IMG/VR virus record: IMGVR_UViG_3300033463_000025
Location: 32,001 to 96,000 of that record
DNA: 64,000 nucleotides
Origin: a virus
Taxonomy: Duplodnaviria; Caudoviricetes
Direction: 5' to 3' (one strand)
Shown here: positions 1 through 63,686 of the stretch, piece by piece
Position numbering within the stretch: position 1 is the stretch's first letter
Layout: every line of letters begins with the position of its first letter
Program-made: the position numbers and the translations under genes
Notes under the pieces: model-generated
What the model was told of the DNA's origin: nothing
What the model saw: only the letters and a program-made list of their open reading frames with translations
The model's database searches: none

Positions 1-112
1 TACTTACAACGCAGAGCTTGTTTGTTCTTGTTTTGACATTGATAGTCGCTCCAAATTAAACGGCGCAAGCGTCCATTTCACGCTTATTGTTAATTAAAGA
101 AAGGAAAGTTAA

Positions 113-565
113 ATGAAGAAAGTTTTATGTTTGATTTTTGTCGTATTGATGATTGTTAGTGTTGGAACACTTACGGCTTTTGCCGATGACCCAAGTGCGA
201 CCCTTTACTACTATGCCCCATCAACATATACAGTTTATATTCCAACCGATTTTACTGTTGGCTCTCCCCTATCCATTACGGGTGAAAATTTGAATTTAGC
301 CGATGGTACTCATGTGGAAGTGTATGTATATAATATGGATGTTGATTCAGTCATATTAACTCACACGTCCGACAGCACAAAAACTGTCAGAGCAACCTTA
401 TATAATAACTTGGGTGAACAACTTAGAAACGAAAGTGTTGTATGCTCATTTAGCGAAGATGACGAGGGTGAATCTTTCCCAATGTACGCAAATGTTGACT
501 ACTCCGAAGATTATAAGGCTGGCGAATATACAGGAATTGTCAATTTCGGAATCTGTTTAAGATAA
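113..565 (+). CDS. secreted/surface protein with signal peptide (possible moron gene)
   Basis: MKK + hydrophobic stretch + AFA signal-peptidase site; RBS AAGGAAAG; converges on the integrase. Confidence 0.7.
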   Translation: MKKVLCLIFVVLMIVSVGTLTAFADDPSATLYYYAPSTYTVYIPTDFTVGSPLSITGENLNLADGTHVEVYVYNMDVDSVILTHTSDSTKTVRATLYNNLGEQLRNESVVCSFSEDDEGESFPMYANVDYSEDYKAGEYTGIVNFGICLR

Positions 566-31736: not shown

Positions 31737-33044
31737 TTATACAACCTGAGTCACAGTATCAAACGCTTCTATACCGACGCTCTCAACCACGGTGTCAATT
31801 AATTCAAGAAGCACATCTTTCTCATTTGGCGTATCGTCATACATAACGCAATTCAAAAGATATTTCAAAGCGTTCCCTATTTGTTCACCTTCAAAGCCTT
31901 TTTCTTTCAGCTCTTCCCCACTGACAGCAAGCGCATCAATCGTATGAGGATTATTCATCTCGCCCAAAAGATGCTCTACAATACAGCCAGCGAACGCCAT
32001 AAACAAAGCGGCATCGGTTTCAACCTGTGACATACAGTAGATAGAAGTTGCAAGTTGATAAACCATTTCTTGACTATCTGTTTCACTTAGGAGCTGACGC
32101 ACATAATACTTCGGGTTAGGATTAGCATTATAATCCCATATTGTTTGTACAGAATTGACAATCCAATCAACAGCCTTAATATCCTTATTGCTAAACTTTA
32201 ACCTTTTAAGGACAGCCTTCGTCTTCTGTGGGTCTTTGAAATTAAAGAGAATAGCAAGTTTACTGTGAAGCATCAACTTATCTCTTGATATTCTTTTTAG
32301 TCCCTCATTAATACGAAGGTAGCTATATCCTCCATCTTTAAATTCGGGAATAATCGGTTCTAAAACATATAACAACTCATCTTTCTTAGTGATAAACCCG
32401 TTTAAAGTCTTGACAAGTTCATCGTGAATACGCTCCACAGCTATATTCTTTAATAAATCCCTCTTAGCACAAAGCGTTTCATATGTGCTTGGTTCAATCC
32501 AAAAGTCAAGATTATTAGCAAAACGAACAGCTCTAATTATTCTAAGAGCGTCTTCCTCAAATCTCTCTTCGGGATTGCCGACACAACGGATTAGCTTTTT
32601 CTTAATATCTCTTTTACCACCATAAGGGTCAACGAATCCATCAACAGGGCTATAAGCCATAGCATTAATAGTGAAGTCACGCCTTACTAAGTCAAGATTA
32701 ATGTCATCAGTAAATACTACATCGTCTGGCTGACGGTTGTTAGAATATTTACCATCCATTCTATAAGTAGTAACCTCATACATAACGCCATCGAAAACCA
32801 CGCCGATAGTACCAAAGTTTTCTCCGTGGCTGGTGACTTTATAATCGTCGCTAAATAACGCCTTAGTTTCTTCGGGCTTCATGCTGGTACAAATATCCCA
32901 ATCGTGAGGCTTCATTTGTCTTAGTGTATCACGCACACAACCTCCGACCACATAAGCGGTATGCCCTGCTTCGTAAATCTTATTTATGATTGTTTCAACC
33001 GCTTCTGGCAGTTGAATATAAAACTTCTTTACATTCGCTTTCAT
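31737..33044 (-). CDS. cca: CCA-adding tRNA nucleotidyltransferase
   Basis: VGGCVRD, DWD, EVTTYR, DLVRRDFTINAMA, RFEEDALRIIRAVRF. Confidence 0.93.
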   Translation of the reverse strand: MKANVKKFYIQLPEAVETIINKIYEAGHTAYVVGGCVRDTLRQMKPHDWDICTSMKPEETKALFSDDYKVTSHGENFGTIGVVFDGVMYEVTTYRMDGKYSNNRQPDDVVFTDDINLDLVRRDFTINAMAYSPVDGFVDPYGGKRDIKKKLIRCVGNPEERFEEDALRIIRAVRFANNLDFWIEPSTYETLCAKRDLLKNIAVERIHDELVKTLNGFITKKDELLYVLEPIIPEFKDGGYSYLRINEGLKRISRDKLMLHSKLAILFNFKDPQKTKAVLKRLKFSNKDIKAVDWIVNSVQTIWDYNANPNPKYYVRQLLSETDSQEMVYQLATSIYCMSQVETDAALFMAFAGCIVEHLLGEMNNPHTIDALAVSGEELKEKGFEGEQIGNALKYLLNCVMYDDTPNEKDVLLELIDTVVESVGIEAFDTVTQVV

Positions 33045-33587: not shown

Positions 33588-34090
33588 TTAGCCGACGAAC
33601 GTTCTACAATCTGTAATATTATCTTCAGCATCACAGATTGGTCTACAGTGTTTAGCGGAAACATATTTCCACTCGTTGCCAGTCATAATAAGAAATGTCG
33701 GATAGCCATTCTTGTTCTGCTTTACATCATAGACGGTTGTTTCAAAACAACGCTCAACCGATTCGCCCTTGTTCTTGTATGTATATAATACTCTAAACAT
33801 AATTAAATCTCTCCGTGATAAATATACTTTCCGTAAACTGTATCGTTTCCATATTTGTCAATGTGTCGTTCGTACTGCGTTTCAATATTATACCTGCGAC
33901 GCAGGTTAAAAATGATAGCACTTAACCTTGTGGCGGCGTACAACTCGATAGCTTCTAAACTTGTTATACTCCCATGTTCCTGTAGATGCTGAAGCACTTT
34001 TAGAGCCTTATTGGTCTTTCTGTGTTTTGATTGAGTTTTCATTAGTAACCTCTTGAAAATAAGTATAGTGTGTTTTATAGCGTTTGTCAA
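33588..34090 (-). other. two small genes; 33803-34090 is an HTH protein
   Basis: HGSITSLEAIELYAATRLSAIIFNLR; promoter TTGACA-N17-TATACT at 34062-34090 means the true start is further downstream. Confidence 0.65.
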
Positions 34091-34095
34091 TAGCC

Positions 34096-34892
34096 TTATT
34101 GACTTATGTTAAAATTTGGATTATTATTTACCCATTTATTGTAAACGAATAATTTTTCTGTTACCTTAAATTGATTATCTTTGTTTCTATCGAGAGTCCT
34201 TGTAAAAGGCTTCTCCCAAATAGCAACAAAGTCATCGGGAGCAACTTGTTCTGAAATAAACATCAAATGGTTTTGACTTACAGTTCGTGCATATTCCCAA
34301 AACGCTTGACTATCAAACACCATTTTGCCATAACCTGTAGTACCGTTGTAAGGTGGGTCTGCGTAAATAACACAGCCTTCTGGTAACTCTACATCACGAT
34401 AATCTCTACAAATGAATTGTGCATCCATAAGTGTAGCCATATCCTTGAGTAAAGATTTCTTGCTTTGTGCGGCATAGTTTGTACCGCCCTTATTACGAGC
34501 ATAACCGCCAAACCATTTACCGCCGAAGCTACAGCCGAATCCAACAAAGCCAGCTAACACCTTATCATCGTTTTTATTGGCTCGAATGTTTTTATAATCT
34601 TCTTCGGATATGTAATCAGGAAGCTCGTAACCGTTCTGAACACCCTGTAACATCGCTATCAGATATTCATGGTTATCGTTCAAAATCTTGTGTTTAAATG
34701 ATGTTAGTTTACTTTCAACAGAACAAGTGCCGCAAAACAAACTGACTAACTCACAGCAGTTTTGCCCCCCCCGTTAGGCGGGAAATAACACTCGCTATTG
34801 ACTTGGAAATTCTTGATTTCCCGCCTTGATAACGCATCTATTTCCTCCGCTATTCTTTTTGCTATACGACTTTTACCGCCTAAATACTGCAT
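34096..34892 (-). CDS. Dam-like (D12-class) adenine methyltransferase, frameshifted at G8 (OFF), two alternative N-termini
   Basis: MQYLGGKSRI (ATG 34892) and MRYQGGKSRI (ATG 34837); C8 at 34765-34772; body LVSLFCG...SFGGKWFGGY...YADPPY. Confidence 0.9.
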
Positions 34893-35227
34893 TACGAAAC
34901 AACAAATTTTTGAATCGCGCTATACAGCTTTTCACTTTCAGAGCCACATACCAGTGTGTTATAATCAACCTCATGTGCGGTATGTTCACGGCTTCTATTC
35001 TTCAAAGCGTTAGCCGCTACGCCAAGCGATGACAGGAATGATTTAGCAGAAATAATCCACTCTTCCCCATTCTCATCAAAGCCCATCAGCTTAACCTTTT
35101 CAGGGATAGCGCAAACAGCCTCATTAAACTCCTTAAAGTCATCGTGGCAGGTAAGTTCAATCTTGTATTCGTAAGTAAACATTTTCATATGCTTGTCCAT
35201 AATTAACCTCATTTCTTTATTGTACAT
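34892..35227 (-). CDS. HPr-like protein lacking the His15 region
   Basis: IISAKSFLSSL resembles the HPr Ser46 motif. Confidence 0.5.
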   Translation of the reverse strand: MYNKEMRLIMDKHMKMFTYEYKIELTCHDDFKEFNEAVCAIPEKVKLMGFDENGEEWIISAKSFLSSLGVAANALKNRSREHTAHEVDYNTLVCGSESEKLYSAIQKFVVS

Positions 35228-37217: not shown

Positions 37218-37724
37218 TCATTTTATTTTTCTTTCAACAACAACTATGGTATCATTGTGCCAACCGCCGTGTGGGACGAGTAACACTTCTTCAATTTCAA
37301 ATCCGTATTTCTTTCCTATACCGCCAGAGTTCCAGCTACAAGTAATAACCTTGCCATTCGATTTTACTATTCGCCCTATCTGTTCTTTTTGTTTAGACCA
37401 GTAACTTGCCTGTGTGGTCTGCATATTCACGGTATAATTCAGTTGTTTATAACACTCGCTCACCTGCCGTGGTGAGAACGGCGGGTCATATAAAACCATA
37501 TCAACAGAGTCATCATCAAATAAAGCCAAAAAGTCTGTAGCGTCCAAATGATAATCTGTATTGTACTGTGTGTCTAAATCATTAGTAACAGTAGCGAGTT
37601 TATTCTTATTAGCAAAAGGGTCGATTATAATGCCCCCCCCGATATGCCGAGCTAACAGCTCTTTAATCGGTGGAACATCAAATGTGTTCTTGCTCGGCAT
37701 AGCCCATTTTCGGCTTATTTTCAT
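37218..37724 (-). CDS. small amino-DNA methyltransferase with in-frame G8 tract (ON)
   Basis: IIDPFAN, LYDPPFS; C8 at 37633-37640 encodes IGGGI; ATGA overlap with the metK stop. Confidence 0.85.
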   Translation of the reverse strand: MKISRKWAMPSKNTFDVPPIKELLARHIGGGIIIDPFANKNKLATVTNDLDTQYNTDYHLDATDFLALFDDDSVDMVLYDPPFSPRQVSECYKQLNYTVNMQTTQASYWSKQKEQIGRIVKSNGKVITCSWNSGGIGKKYGFEIEEVLLVPHGGWHNDTIVVVERKIK

Positions 37725-38509
37725 CGAATCAAACCCCATTCGGCAAACTTTTCAAAACCGCCGACGCTTTTAATATATGCACGAGCGACGTTTACAATTT
37801 GCTCATACGGAATACCGTCAATAGACTCATCACCAATAGCGCAACACATTTCGACTGGTTTACCTGTTTCTTGGGCTTTAAGATGAGCGTAAATGTTTAC
37901 ACTTACATCAGCCTTTGAAAAGTCCTTCCCCATTAAGCCGCCGCCTGTGACAGAATCACCCATATCAGAGCCGAGTTTACGATTTGTAGCACCTGTGTCA
38001 ACCTCTACGCCGCCCGTCCAATAACCAAGCGGATTGACGATTGCATCAGGATATAATTTTGCAATATCAAATTTTTCTGCAAAACTTTGACAAATAATCA
38101 GCTTGTCGCCGTTGAGAATATACTTGCCATCGCTACCATACTTGTCATATAAGCGATGTGCTATATCAGATAAAGCCTTCTGTTCTGCCGTTACAGGCAT
38201 ACCCCTAAAGATACCGTTATCGCCACAGCGGATTTTACCATGCTGATTCGCGGCAAGGTGAATATCTTGCGACACAAGACGGAAATCTGTGAGCAGTTTA
38301 TTCCCACCAATGCGATTAACAATATTGTCTGTCTCATCCCAAGTGATATTTACAGAGCTTTCAACTATGATATGGCAAATACCATGACCGATAAGCACTT
38401 CAACCGCAATCCGTGGATTCTCCGCTTTGGAATACGCTAAGTCAACTAATGCGCCAGCAATTCTATCGGCTATCTTATCAGGGTGTGACGGATTAACTTT
38501 CTCGAACAT
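37721..38509 (-). CDS. metK: compact S-adenosylmethionine synthetase
   Basis: EKVNPSHPDKIADRI, GDNG, DGK, NPLG...DTGATNRK, GGG...GKDFSKAD. Confidence 0.92.
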   Translation of the reverse strand: MFEKVNPSHPDKIADRIAGALVDLAYSKAENPRIAVEVLIGHGICHIIVESSVNITWDETDNIVNRIGGNKLLTDFRLVSQDIHLAANQHGKIRCGDNGIFRGMPVTAEQKALSDIAHRLYDKYGSDGKYILNGDKLIICQSFAEKFDIAKLYPDAIVNPLGYWTGGVEVDTGATNRKLGSDMGDSVTGGGLMGKDFSKADVSVNIYAHLKAQETGKPVEMCCAIGDESIDGIPYEQIVNVARAYIKSVGGFEKFAEWGLIR

Positions 38510-38684: not shown

Positions 38685-39432
38685 GCAACATTCCTCGCTT
38701 TATTAATTCGTTCTTTAGCAATCTCATACATCTGTAAATCGTTTTCAATACCAATGAATCTTCTTTTGGTATTGATGCACGCCTCGCCAGTTGAGCCGCT
38801 ACCCATGCAGTTATCAAGGACAACATCATCCTCGTTGGTATATGTATTTATTAACCATTCTAAAAGTGCAACAGGCTTTTGCGTCGGGTGAAGTCTGCTA
38901 CCGTCCCTTGAATAGCTCAATATCGACAAAGGATTTCTCGCTCCGTCAAGCGACTCAGTATAAGCTACACCTCTATCGCCGTAGTTATCAGAAAGACTAC
39001 CGTTTTTAGTTTTCTTATATGGTGTTGAATACCATAGCTGTTTATTATATGTGGGTTTCTTTTTATAGAAGATTGCAATTTCCTCATGGGATTTCAAAGG
39101 TTTCACATTAGCATTAAGAAAATCAGAGCCACGTTGTTTATCCCATATAAGGTTATAACGCCACATCTTTTTATTTGATAACATAAGGTCTGCCATAAAC
39201 AAACCATCGCAAAACAAAGCTATACAACCGTTCTGTTTGATAATTCTGTTGTACTGTTCCCATAGCTTTTCAAATGGAATAACAGTGTCCCATTTATTTC
39301 TTGTCGTTCCGTATGGAAGGTCGCAACAAATCATATCAATACAACCGTCAGGGAGTTGGCTCATAACCGATAAACAATCTTGTCGCCAAAGGCTTACCCC
39401 CCCCGACTCAGAAGATTATTTATATCAAGCAT
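38681..39432 (-). CDS. N4/N6 (beta-class) DNA methyltransferase, frameshifted at G8 (OFF)
   Basis: AAGGAG RBS + ATG 39432 gives MLDINNLLSRGG*; C8 at 39397-39404; other frame QDCLSVM...DLPYG...HPTQKP...LDNCMGSGST. Confidence 0.88.
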
Positions 39433-61868: not shown

Positions 61869-63686
61869 TTATGCAACCGTTTCTTCCAACATGAGCACTT
61901 TGCTTTCGGGAGAAACGATAAAACGCTCACGCTGGGCGAATGTCTGATTGTACGATTCCTCGCCTTCAAATTCATCTATTACTCGGCGTTCTTCTTCGTC
62001 CATAGCTTTGTATGTTTTCTTTCCGTAGGACGGCGGCAACCAGCCCTTCTTCATACAGCCGTAAATGTTAAACTTCTTCAGAACGTCAAGGTCGGTAAAC
62101 TTGATATGAACTGTACCCTTCTTGTACACGTTTACATCGAAATACTTGAAATGCAAATTCTTTGTGGTCTGCGTTTTTTCGTATGCCTCTAACCAATGGT
62201 GAAGGTCGCGCTGAATTTCATTTTCTCCACCATCAAGGAAGTCAAAACACTTTTCAATATCGTCAAGGATTCTGCCGATTTCTCCGTCATAGAAGTTATA
62301 CTTGAATTTACCCCAAATAGAATCCCAACATCTACACCACGGCACAACAACCCTGGGATTGATGATGAAAGCAGAGTTAGATTTCCAACCGCTGAAGTAG
62401 TGAACGTTTCCACTTGCTTCCATTGAATGTTTGTATGTCAGCTTTTCAAAGAGCGATATGATTTTATCCTCGATACCTTGAGCTACAGACTTGAGCATAT
62501 CAATTCTTACAGCGTAGATATTTGACAACGAAAAATCCTTCTTGGCATATTCCTTTATATCGGCAAAATACTGTTCTTTAAGATTGGAAGTAAGATTGCC
62601 GATAAATGCAGGCTTATGTAAAAGCTCATACCAATATTTGTATCTTACGGAATAAACATACTTGTTCCACTCAAAAGCCTTACCTCTTCCGTCTACCAGT
62701 CCGATATGTGCGCCGCGCTTGTATGAAGGCAACTCTTTTTCATCGCTGGCAAAGTATAAAGAAATATGCGGCGATACGGCAAGGTATTCTTCATACAGCC
62801 TCTTCCCCATCGCTATTTCTTTTTTATACATCAGCACAGCTTGACGCATATAATCAGCGGTCACAATTTCAGAAGTGTTATAGTCAGGCTCATCAACAGT
62901 GATTTCCATTTCCTCAAGCTCATCAAGGATTGTGGAATGTGCATTGTTGAACGGCGAAGGAATATCAATACGCACGATTGCACACTCAACATCTGTCTGG
63001 CGTTCAGCCTGTTTGAAAGCACCGCTAACATATTCAATCTCGGCATTGTAGAAGTCGAGCTGTTTCTTCAATTCTTTGCGCCAATTAGAATAGGGATTGT
63101 CAAGAGTCTGACGGTTAAGCAGACAAATAATCTTTCCGCCTGTTTTCTTGGCTACGTTGATTGCGTGAAGAAGATGCTCGTCGCCGTTGCTAAAAGGCGG
63201 ATTCATAATGATTAAGTCGAAGTGTTCATCGCCGTTAAACTCTAAGAAGTCGCTACCAATAACGGTATAATCTTTGTCTTTAAGGATTGCTCTAAGTCCG
63301 TCGTCAACCTCGATACAATTAACGTCTAACTTTTCACATCCCTCACGAATGTCACCAATGAGATAACGCCTTTCATCTTCATCTTGGCTATACTTTCTTT
63401 TGTTATAGTCTGCTATCCATTGAGTAGTCATGTACTTATAAATCATTTCTTCATAAGTAATTTTATAAGCAACATACTCTTCAAAGATAGGGTCTTTATA
63501 ACGATAGCTCCCCATTCTGTGGCTAACGCAGTAACGCATATAGCAAATGAAGTCTGCAATATCACCCTTGCCTGCTGACGGCTCAAGCACACTCTCAATA
63601 TCGGTCAACTTAATGCCTTTAATCATTTCCGCTACAAGTTCTGGCGGAGTCGGATAAAATTCAGTTAATGATTTGTATGTACTCAT
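61869..63686 (-). CDS. N6-adenine methyltransferase with DUF4942-like C-terminal domain
   Basis: FYPTP, LEPSAGKG, IMNPPF, YKKGTVHIKF, WLPPSYG; promoter at 63767-63795. Confidence 0.88.
   Translation of the reverse strand: MSTYKSLTEFYPTPPELVAEMIKGIKLTDIESVLEPSAGKGDIADFICYMRYCVSHRMGSYRYKDPIFEEYVAYKITYEEMIYKYMTTQWIADYNKRKYSQDEDERRYLIGDIREGCEKLDVNCIEVDDGLRAILKDKDYTVIGSDFLEFNGDEHFDLIIMNPPFSNGDEHLLHAINVAKKTGGKIICLLNRQTLDNPYSNWRKELKKQLDFYNAEIEYVSGAFKQAERQTDVECAIVRIDIPSPFNNAHSTILDELEEMEITVDEPDYNTSEIVTADYMRQAVLMYKKEIAMGKRLYEEYLAVSPHISLYFASDEKELPSYKRGAHIGLVDGRGKAFEWNKYVYSVRYKYWYELLHKPAFIGNLTSNLKEQYFADIKEYAKKDFSLSNIYAVRIDMLKSVAQGIEDKIISLFEKLTYKHSMEASGNVHYFSGWKSNSAFIINPRVVVPWCRCWDSIWGKFKYNFYDGEIGRILDDIEKCFDFLDGGENEIQRDLHHWLEAYEKTQTTKNLHFKYFDVNVYKKGTVHIKFTDLDVLKKFNIYGCMKKGWLPPSYGKKTYKAMDEEERRVIDEFEGEESYNQTFAQRERFIVSPESKVLMLEETVA

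Follow-up and report, generated by a model that had tools for sequence, protein, structure and literature searches.

We found that a phage Dam-like DNA methylase gene begins with two homologous N-terminal segments, which overlap in two different reading frames and are followed by a run of eight G residues and a catalytic body in the third frame. The locus is likely a three-phase translational contingency switch, with the expression and activity of the two resulting isoforms being inferred. The gene is located in the window (the whole stretch of DNA analyzed, 64,000 nucleotides, corresponding to positions 32,001 to 96,000 of IMG/VR record IMGVR_UViG_3300033463_000025). The virus record is complete (143,758 bp, with direct terminal repeats) and encodes a DNA polymerase III alpha subunit, DnaB, an anaerobic ribonucleotide reductase, a CCA-adding enzyme and five tRNAs. 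The host group of this phage of about 144 kb comprises anaerobic gut or rumen Clostridia. No close cultured phage was found when the locus was compared by blastn against 50,697 phage records, the sole match being 74 nt of a Bacillus phage methylase gene.

All genes in this part of the window are carried by the minus strand. The locus is organized as follows:

34892..35227, minus strand: upstream ORF of 111 aa with unknown function (no Pfam match)
34839..34892, minus strand: N-terminal module 1 (Q-type, YxGGK), codons 1-18 of start 1 (translation)
34746..34892, minus strand: start-1 ORF as it reads at G8, terminated, 48 aa (frame translation)
34844..34848, minus strand: GGAGG Shine-Dalgarno motif of start 2, 6 nt before ATG 34837
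34784-34837, minus strand: N-terminal module 2 (R-type), codons 1-18 of start 2, within the start-2 ORF
34751..34837, minus strand: start-2 ORF as it reads at G8, terminated, 28 aa (frame translation)
34765..34772, minus strand: G8 homopolymer tract (exactly eight G's), the slippery element
34096..34764, minus strand: catalytic body of the D12 class (Dam-like) in the third frame, up to the stop codon (PF02086, motifs, EcoDam alignment)

The ATG of start 1 (34892) and the TAA of the upstream ORF have one A in common (TAATG), and start 1 is probably reached via translational coupling, as inferred from this arrangement. Start 1 of this phage lacks a Shine-Dalgarno motif of its own, while start 2 has the GGAGG motif, which is encoded within the last codons of module 1. 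ATG 34837 is located 55 nt downstream of ATG 34892 (1 mod 3) and is read in another frame. Both modules share 12 of 18 residues, 32 of 54 bases and 8 of 18 third codon positions. Three-frame translation shows that both N-terminal frames end 4-6 codons past the tract, and that the third frame stays open between the tract and 34096 and holds motif I (SLFCG) and motif IV (DPPY). The G8 tract occupies the position of the linker between the N-terminal helix and the SAM-binding motif I. With one base left out of the tract (phase G7/G10), start 2 and the body form a single frame of 246 aa; with two bases left out (phase G6/G9), start 1 and the body form one of 264 aa. At G8 neither start is joined to the body, which is the OFF state found in this phage. 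Past codon 18, the start-1 frame reads module 2 out of frame as a passenger linker.

A previous sequence-only reading of the window had described start 1 (ATG 34892, TAATG, 48 aa) and start 2 (ATG 34837, GGAGG, 28 aa), the YxGGK motif in both N-termini and the body in the third frame, and had assigned G9 to start 1, G7 or G10 to start 2 and G8 to neither. All of this held, including every coordinate, upon three-frame translation and frame reading. Directly downstream of the methylase gene lies the gene for a small winged-helix protein (PF14090, HTH_39; 33803-34051, minus strand), and the same neighbor is present in L081, the one other record that was recovered from this phage's own lineage.

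In the mechanism that we propose, the methylase would need its YxGGK-bearing N-terminal helix and the slippery repeat would sit just past this helix. Because the repeat follows an essential element, a second frame would need its own copy of that element to be productive, which would account for the N-terminal duplication: the helix would be encoded twice, 55 nt apart (1 mod 3), with one start per copy. A slipped-strand change in the G tract would bring the body in frame with start 2 and give a short isoform (R at residue 2). The alternative slip would bring it in frame with start 1 and give a long isoform (Q at residue 2), which would carry the out-of-frame module 2 as a partly disordered linker of 18-25 residues. 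The third phase, which is the one present here at G8, would join neither start and would be OFF. Two starts in two frames would thus turn two of the three phases ON. The likely use of such a switch, again an inference, would be to let the phage hedge its DNA methylation against restriction by the host or against defences that depend on methylation. Likewise inferred are the translation of the two isoforms, their enzymatic activity and frequent, reversible switching. The sequence-only reading had also suggested two expression levels. This is no more than plausible: start 1 would be reached via TAATG coupling and start 2 via a GGAGG motif, so the two ON phases may differ in level, as inferred from these start signals.

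The double start is shown to be conserved in a large number of relatives. With the start-2 fusion as query, we retrieved more than 2,000 metagenome proteins at 63-77% identity. Of the top 120 clusters, 69 belong to a short class (about 231-255 aa, R at residue 2) and 30 to a long class (about 251-270 aa, Q at residue 2), and among the rest are a small number of truncated calls and in-frame tandem forms. The extra conserved segment of the long class is the hidden second start, read out of frame, and the long-form clusters hold 130-294 members. We then scanned all three frames upstream of motif I in about 80 IMG/VR loci. A double start before a poly-G or (GA)n repeat is present in 48 of 81 loci, with 26 of 81 being single-start relatives. 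The two starts are spaced by 55 nt in 30 of the 48 loci and by 58, 67 or 74-88 nt in the others, mostly 1 mod 3. The repeats that follow the starts are either poly-G (G6-G13) or (GA)n with 4-14 units and are located 10-45 nt before motif I. Species-representative bacterial genomes and MAGs yielded 23 more double-start loci (Ruminococcus, Oscillospiraceae, Flintibacter, Acutalibacter and other Clostridia). Three of the carriers are isolates: Ruminococcus sp. YE282 has start 2 ON at G8, Flintibacter muris DSM 110149 has start 1 ON at G11, and Acutalibacter caecimuris M00118 has two tracts with start 1 ON. We should note that the loci are phylogenetically related and their counts are therefore not independent. 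Loss of the second start in relatives had been named as part of the outcome that would refute the sequence-only reading; the second start is kept, in the 48 IMG/VR loci and the 23 bacterial or MAG loci.

Other repeats seem to be present at the same linker position in L104, L107 and protein P0107, specifically (TA)n-like (I/Y alternation, IYIY) and (AGAC)n-like (RQTD) repeats. These were inferred from peptides and not from the DNA scan, which identified the poly-G and (GA)n repeats. The variety of repeat types at one linker position argues for selection for mutability. A further group of loci (L020, L022-L026, L028, L030, L058, L059, L086, L089, L091-L093, L101, L110, L113) contains two G tracts, one after each module. 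Here, the first tract sets whether module 1 is followed by module 2 in frame (tandem) or out of frame, and nine combinations of tract phases are possible in principle.

All three states of the proposed switch occur in nature. In 42 unique viral double-start loci, start 2 is in frame in 18 (ON2), start 1 is in frame in nine (ON1), both are in frame in a single tandem locus and 14 are OFF. The three-state switch (isoform A, OFF, isoform B) put forward in the sequence-only reading is supported by these relatives, with the activity of the isoforms being inferred. Lineages with identical or nearly identical flanks differ in both tract length and state, and the following pairs were found:

G7 (ON2) and G8 (OFF)
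G8 (ON2) and G6 (OFF)
G9 (OFF) and G13 (ON1)
G8 (ON2) and G7/G10 (ON1)
(GA)8 (ON2) and (GA)7 (OFF)

At the protein level, one 90%-identity cluster combines long (249/251/253 aa), short (234/236 aa) and truncated (187 aa) forms with essentially the same body. Tract variation is thus shown for the relatives only and not for this phage's own lineage, in which L081 likewise has G8 and possibly comes from the same sample. An exact 32-mer of the tract flank had no match in metagenome contigs. All states were read from consensus assemblies, which hide mixtures within a population. Tracts interrupted by an A (GGAGGGG, GGGGAGGGGG) are found in L006, L008 and L038 and look locked in a start-2-ON or start-1-ON phase; the interrupted tract of L038 is in the start-1-ON phase.

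Both modules are under coding-type purifying selection as strong as that on the catalytic body, as shown by the pN and pS values of 20 unique loci with 55-nt spacing:

Module 1, own frame: pS 0.746, pN 0.159
Module 2, own frame: pS 0.734, pN 0.147
Catalytic body: pS 0.82, pN 0.186
Module 1, two other frames: pS 0.27 and 0.17, pN 0.29 and 0.29
Module 2, start-1 frame: pS 0.155, pN 0.302

In the off-frame controls, pN equals or exceeds pS, and module 2 read in the start-1 frame is a passenger. This frame is nevertheless kept free of stops. Between ATG 2 and the repeat, the start-1 frame is stop-free in 40 of 41 unique loci and the start-2 frame is open in 41 of 41, against 1 of 39 for the third frame, which has 2.7 stops on average. 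Of 42 loci, 35 have a Shine-Dalgarno-like motif before start 1 and 31 have one before start 2, with GGAG or GGAGG in 28 of the latter. The idea that both N-termini are used, originally based on the motif being kept despite nucleotide divergence, is thus supported by pN/pS. Support for a product from both starts is only indirect, consisting of Shine-Dalgarno-like motifs and coding selection, and translation is still inferred from sequence.

The body alone matches PF02086 (Pfam; 50.6 bits against a cut-off of 22, E 2.8e-13). Its DPPY (motif IV) aligns with D181-Y184 of EcoDam. The motif I position reads F-C-G-T-C, in which the F and the first G of FxGxG are kept and the last G is replaced by C; this FCGxC form is found across the whole subfamily. 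The aromatic-x-G-G-K motif, encoded twice in two frames, aligns with W10-K14 of EcoDam, and R124 and the GGK motif of EcoDam both align with the phage enzyme at an overall identity of about 27%. Residue equivalence rests on the E. coli dam product, aligned with MAFFT, and on the range of the structural alignment. A phmmer search of the 21-residue N-terminus against PDB sequences gave no match, and a profile search aligned T4 Dam from residue 24 only and did not cover the N-terminus.

AlphaFold2 was run on natural homologs, of which the long one is 72% identical to the enzyme of the window. In the model of the long homolog, the first helix is predicted with a pLDDT of 89 (residues 11-20) and the linker (residues 29-39) with values below 50. 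The short homolog is predicted confidently throughout its start (pLDDT 93/90), with residues 1-3 having a low pLDDT in both models. The long model aligns with EcoDam (2g1p_B) with a Z-score of 15.2 and an rmsd of 3.2 over 206 aligned residues (model 2..251 to chain 9..270) and with T4 Dam (1yfl) with a Z-score of 14.4. These predictions, made on a homolog, agree with module 1 taking the usual position of the N-terminus in EcoDam. That the long isoform tolerates an insertion of 18-25 residues between the helix and motif I is merely suggested by the same model. The phage enzyme has its family and, as inferred from the homolog model, its fold in common with EcoDam, T4 Dam and DpnM (PF02086; PDB 2g1p, 1yfl, 2dpm), but its gene adds a repeat-bearing linker and a duplicated N-terminus.

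Residue 2 consistently differs between the two modules. One Q and one R are present in each of the 42 unique viral double-start loci and in 21 of 23 loci from bacterial genomes or MAGs, the other two being H/M or Q/M. Overall, Q/R is found in 63 of 65 double-start loci and a homotypic pair in none. The Q copy comes first in most viral loci; the order is reversed in several lineages, with the pair still being mixed. Specifically, L010, L011, L016, L048, L104 and L105 have R on module 1 and Q on module 2, while the rest of the modules keep their positional character, and this reciprocal swap retains one Q and one R. In the MAFFT alignment, residue 2 is located opposite K9 of EcoDam, and Y3-K7 opposite W10-K14. 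EcoDam K9 is among the residues for recognition of the first base pair of GATC, a contact that is not conserved across the Dam family (PMC4417163). Since residue 2 never matches between the two modules and aligns with K9, the isoforms may differ in function. One possibility, which we offer as a hypothesis only, is that they differ in target specificity or stringency, giving two methylases and an OFF state. If true, the locus would be a three-state epigenetic switch, which goes beyond raising the ON fraction.

We considered three rival explanations. The one that survives best, though unlikely, is recoding, in which the DNA tract is stable and the enzyme is made from G8 by RNA-polymerase slippage or ribosomal frameshifting (a ‘leaky OFF’). 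There is a precedent, as frameshift suppression at repeats was reported in a phase-variable mod gene fragment (bioRxiv 10.64898/2026.04.01.715767), and low-level slippage on G8 is not excluded by the evidence. Given such suppression, the OFF state may be leaky. Against recoding, tract length differs at the DNA level between near-identical genomes, and one 90% cluster has gene calls fused in different frames. Moreover, a second start in a second frame would be superfluous if recoding were all that happened.

A second rival, which we regard as very unlikely, holds that module 1 is the leftover of a 55-nt duplication or of mosaic recombination, or a leader ORF feeding ribosomes to start 2. The start-2 fusion alone would then work, and the locus would be an ordinary ON/OFF switch. 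In favor of this view, the short R-type is the commonest (69 versus 30 long Q-type of the top 120 clusters), ON2 outnumbers ON1 (18 versus 9), single-start relatives exist (26 of 81 loci) and start 1 of this phage is without its own Shine-Dalgarno motif. However, a relic or leader would not keep a methylase motif at a pN/pS of about 0.2 where synonymous sites are saturated, and the start-1 frame is stop-free through module 2 in 40 of 41 loci versus 1 of 39 for the third frame. In addition, long forms are abundant as natural gene products (clusters of 130-294 members), and an interrupted tract locked in the start-1-ON phase exists (L038). A decaying duplication was rejected on these four grounds, i.e., selection, frame openness, abundant long forms and the locked tract.

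The weakest rival, a homopolymer sequencing or assembly error in an intact gene, is all but excluded and was rejected: homopolymers are error-prone and only one consensus sequence represents this phage, but the other contig record is also G8 (although it may come from the same sample), the three G runs of at least 7 in 143.8 kb are all placed in methyltransferase 5′ regions with one in frame, relatives from many assemblies share the architecture (including (GA)n repeats) and the two-frame N-termini are present whatever the tract length.

The preferred reading, a three-phase switch, has partial precedents. In Haemophilus influenzae licA (lic1), start codons are present in two of the three frames upstream of a CAAT repeat (PMC2212159). 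Both systems have a repeat in the 5′ coding region with two phases ON and one OFF. In licA, however, the alternative starts add only a few leader residues and no functional element is duplicated. In the phage gene, the repeat is located downstream of an essential element of the catalytic domain, and two diverged, overlapping copies of this element are present in two frames. The phage system also differs from licA in being phage-borne, in its poly-G or (GA)n repeat instead of a tetranucleotide and in the two structurally different isoforms predicted for it.

Phase-variable methyltransferases are known from bacteria, with Type III mod genes and Type I phasevarions (PMC5909438, PMC7383803) and a poly-G Type IIG enzyme of C. 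jejuni (PMC4889913). They resemble the phage locus in having a simple-sequence repeat in a methyltransferase ORF that is turned ON or OFF by frameshift. However, the bacterial systems belong to cellular restriction-modification and are binary, whereas the phage locus encodes an orphan D12-class enzyme with two ON phases and two N-termini. Contingency loci have also been described in phages, namely poly-G tracts in receptor-binding proteins of Fletchervirus and repeats in T2/T4. The same preprint mentions that the methylase gene of a Bordetella phage has a poly-G tract, a case that, according to this source, was not studied further (bioRxiv 10.1101/2025.10.21.683753). These phage loci have hypermutable homopolymers for bet-hedging in common with ours, but none is described with duplicated N-termini in two frames or with three states. 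In the open-access literature searched, we found no description of duplicated, overlapping two-frame N-termini but only the partial precedents above (PMC3091744 and PMC11868660 contain nothing bearing on the design); a paywalled account is possible.

Repeat-based phase variation is usually binary and mostly studied in bacterial pathogens, and its recognition in phages is recent. In our case, repeat switching acts on DNA methylases, and the phages and prophages that use it form a large, widespread group in gut and rumen Clostridia. The design would circumvent a structural problem, a repeat that comes after an essential element, by means of an overlapping copy in a second frame, so that one gene would have two ON phases and give two different proteins. 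This points to phages hedging the epigenetic marks of their own DNA against restriction by the host and defences that depend on methylation. The locus is also a natural example of an overlapping segment kept in two frames by selection. For annotation, it is a warning that methylase calls in viromes that appear ‘frameshifted’ or variably long can be switch states and not errors. As cultured hosts carry the locus, it is directly testable.

The tract is not the only one in this genome and is not due to chance. G runs of at least 7 are expected 0.7 times in the window, and the whole genome contains just three, all of them G8 on the coding strand. Three different DNA methyltransferase genes carry one each in their 5′ part, one in frame and two out of frame, and this placement argues against sequencing error as the source of the frameshifts. 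The second G8 tract (37633-37640, minus strand) is located inside an amino-methyltransferase ORF of 173 aa (37218-37739) with a DPPF motif and a weak match to PF10237. It is in frame and encodes Gly-Gly-Gly just before the SAM-binding region, so the gene is ON. The third G8 tract (39397-39404, minus strand) is positioned 5′ of an N4/N6 methyltransferase ORF (PF01555; 38681-39364). A short ORF from about 39432 stops right past this tract and one extra G would join this ORF to a normal N-terminus, so the gene is OFF at G8. An internal ATG (39364) could yield a truncated product. The PF01555 gene showed no second start in another frame. Two other genes lie among the switchable methylases, specifically a SAM-synthetase-like gene (PF00438 N-terminal domain; 37721-38509, minus strand) and a gene for a C5 cytosine methylase of 492 aa (PF00145; 39744-41222, minus strand). 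Finally, a protein of 605 aa with DUF4942 and weak Dam/MTS methyltransferase matches is encoded at 61869-63686 (minus strand) and may represent a fifth DNA-modification gene.
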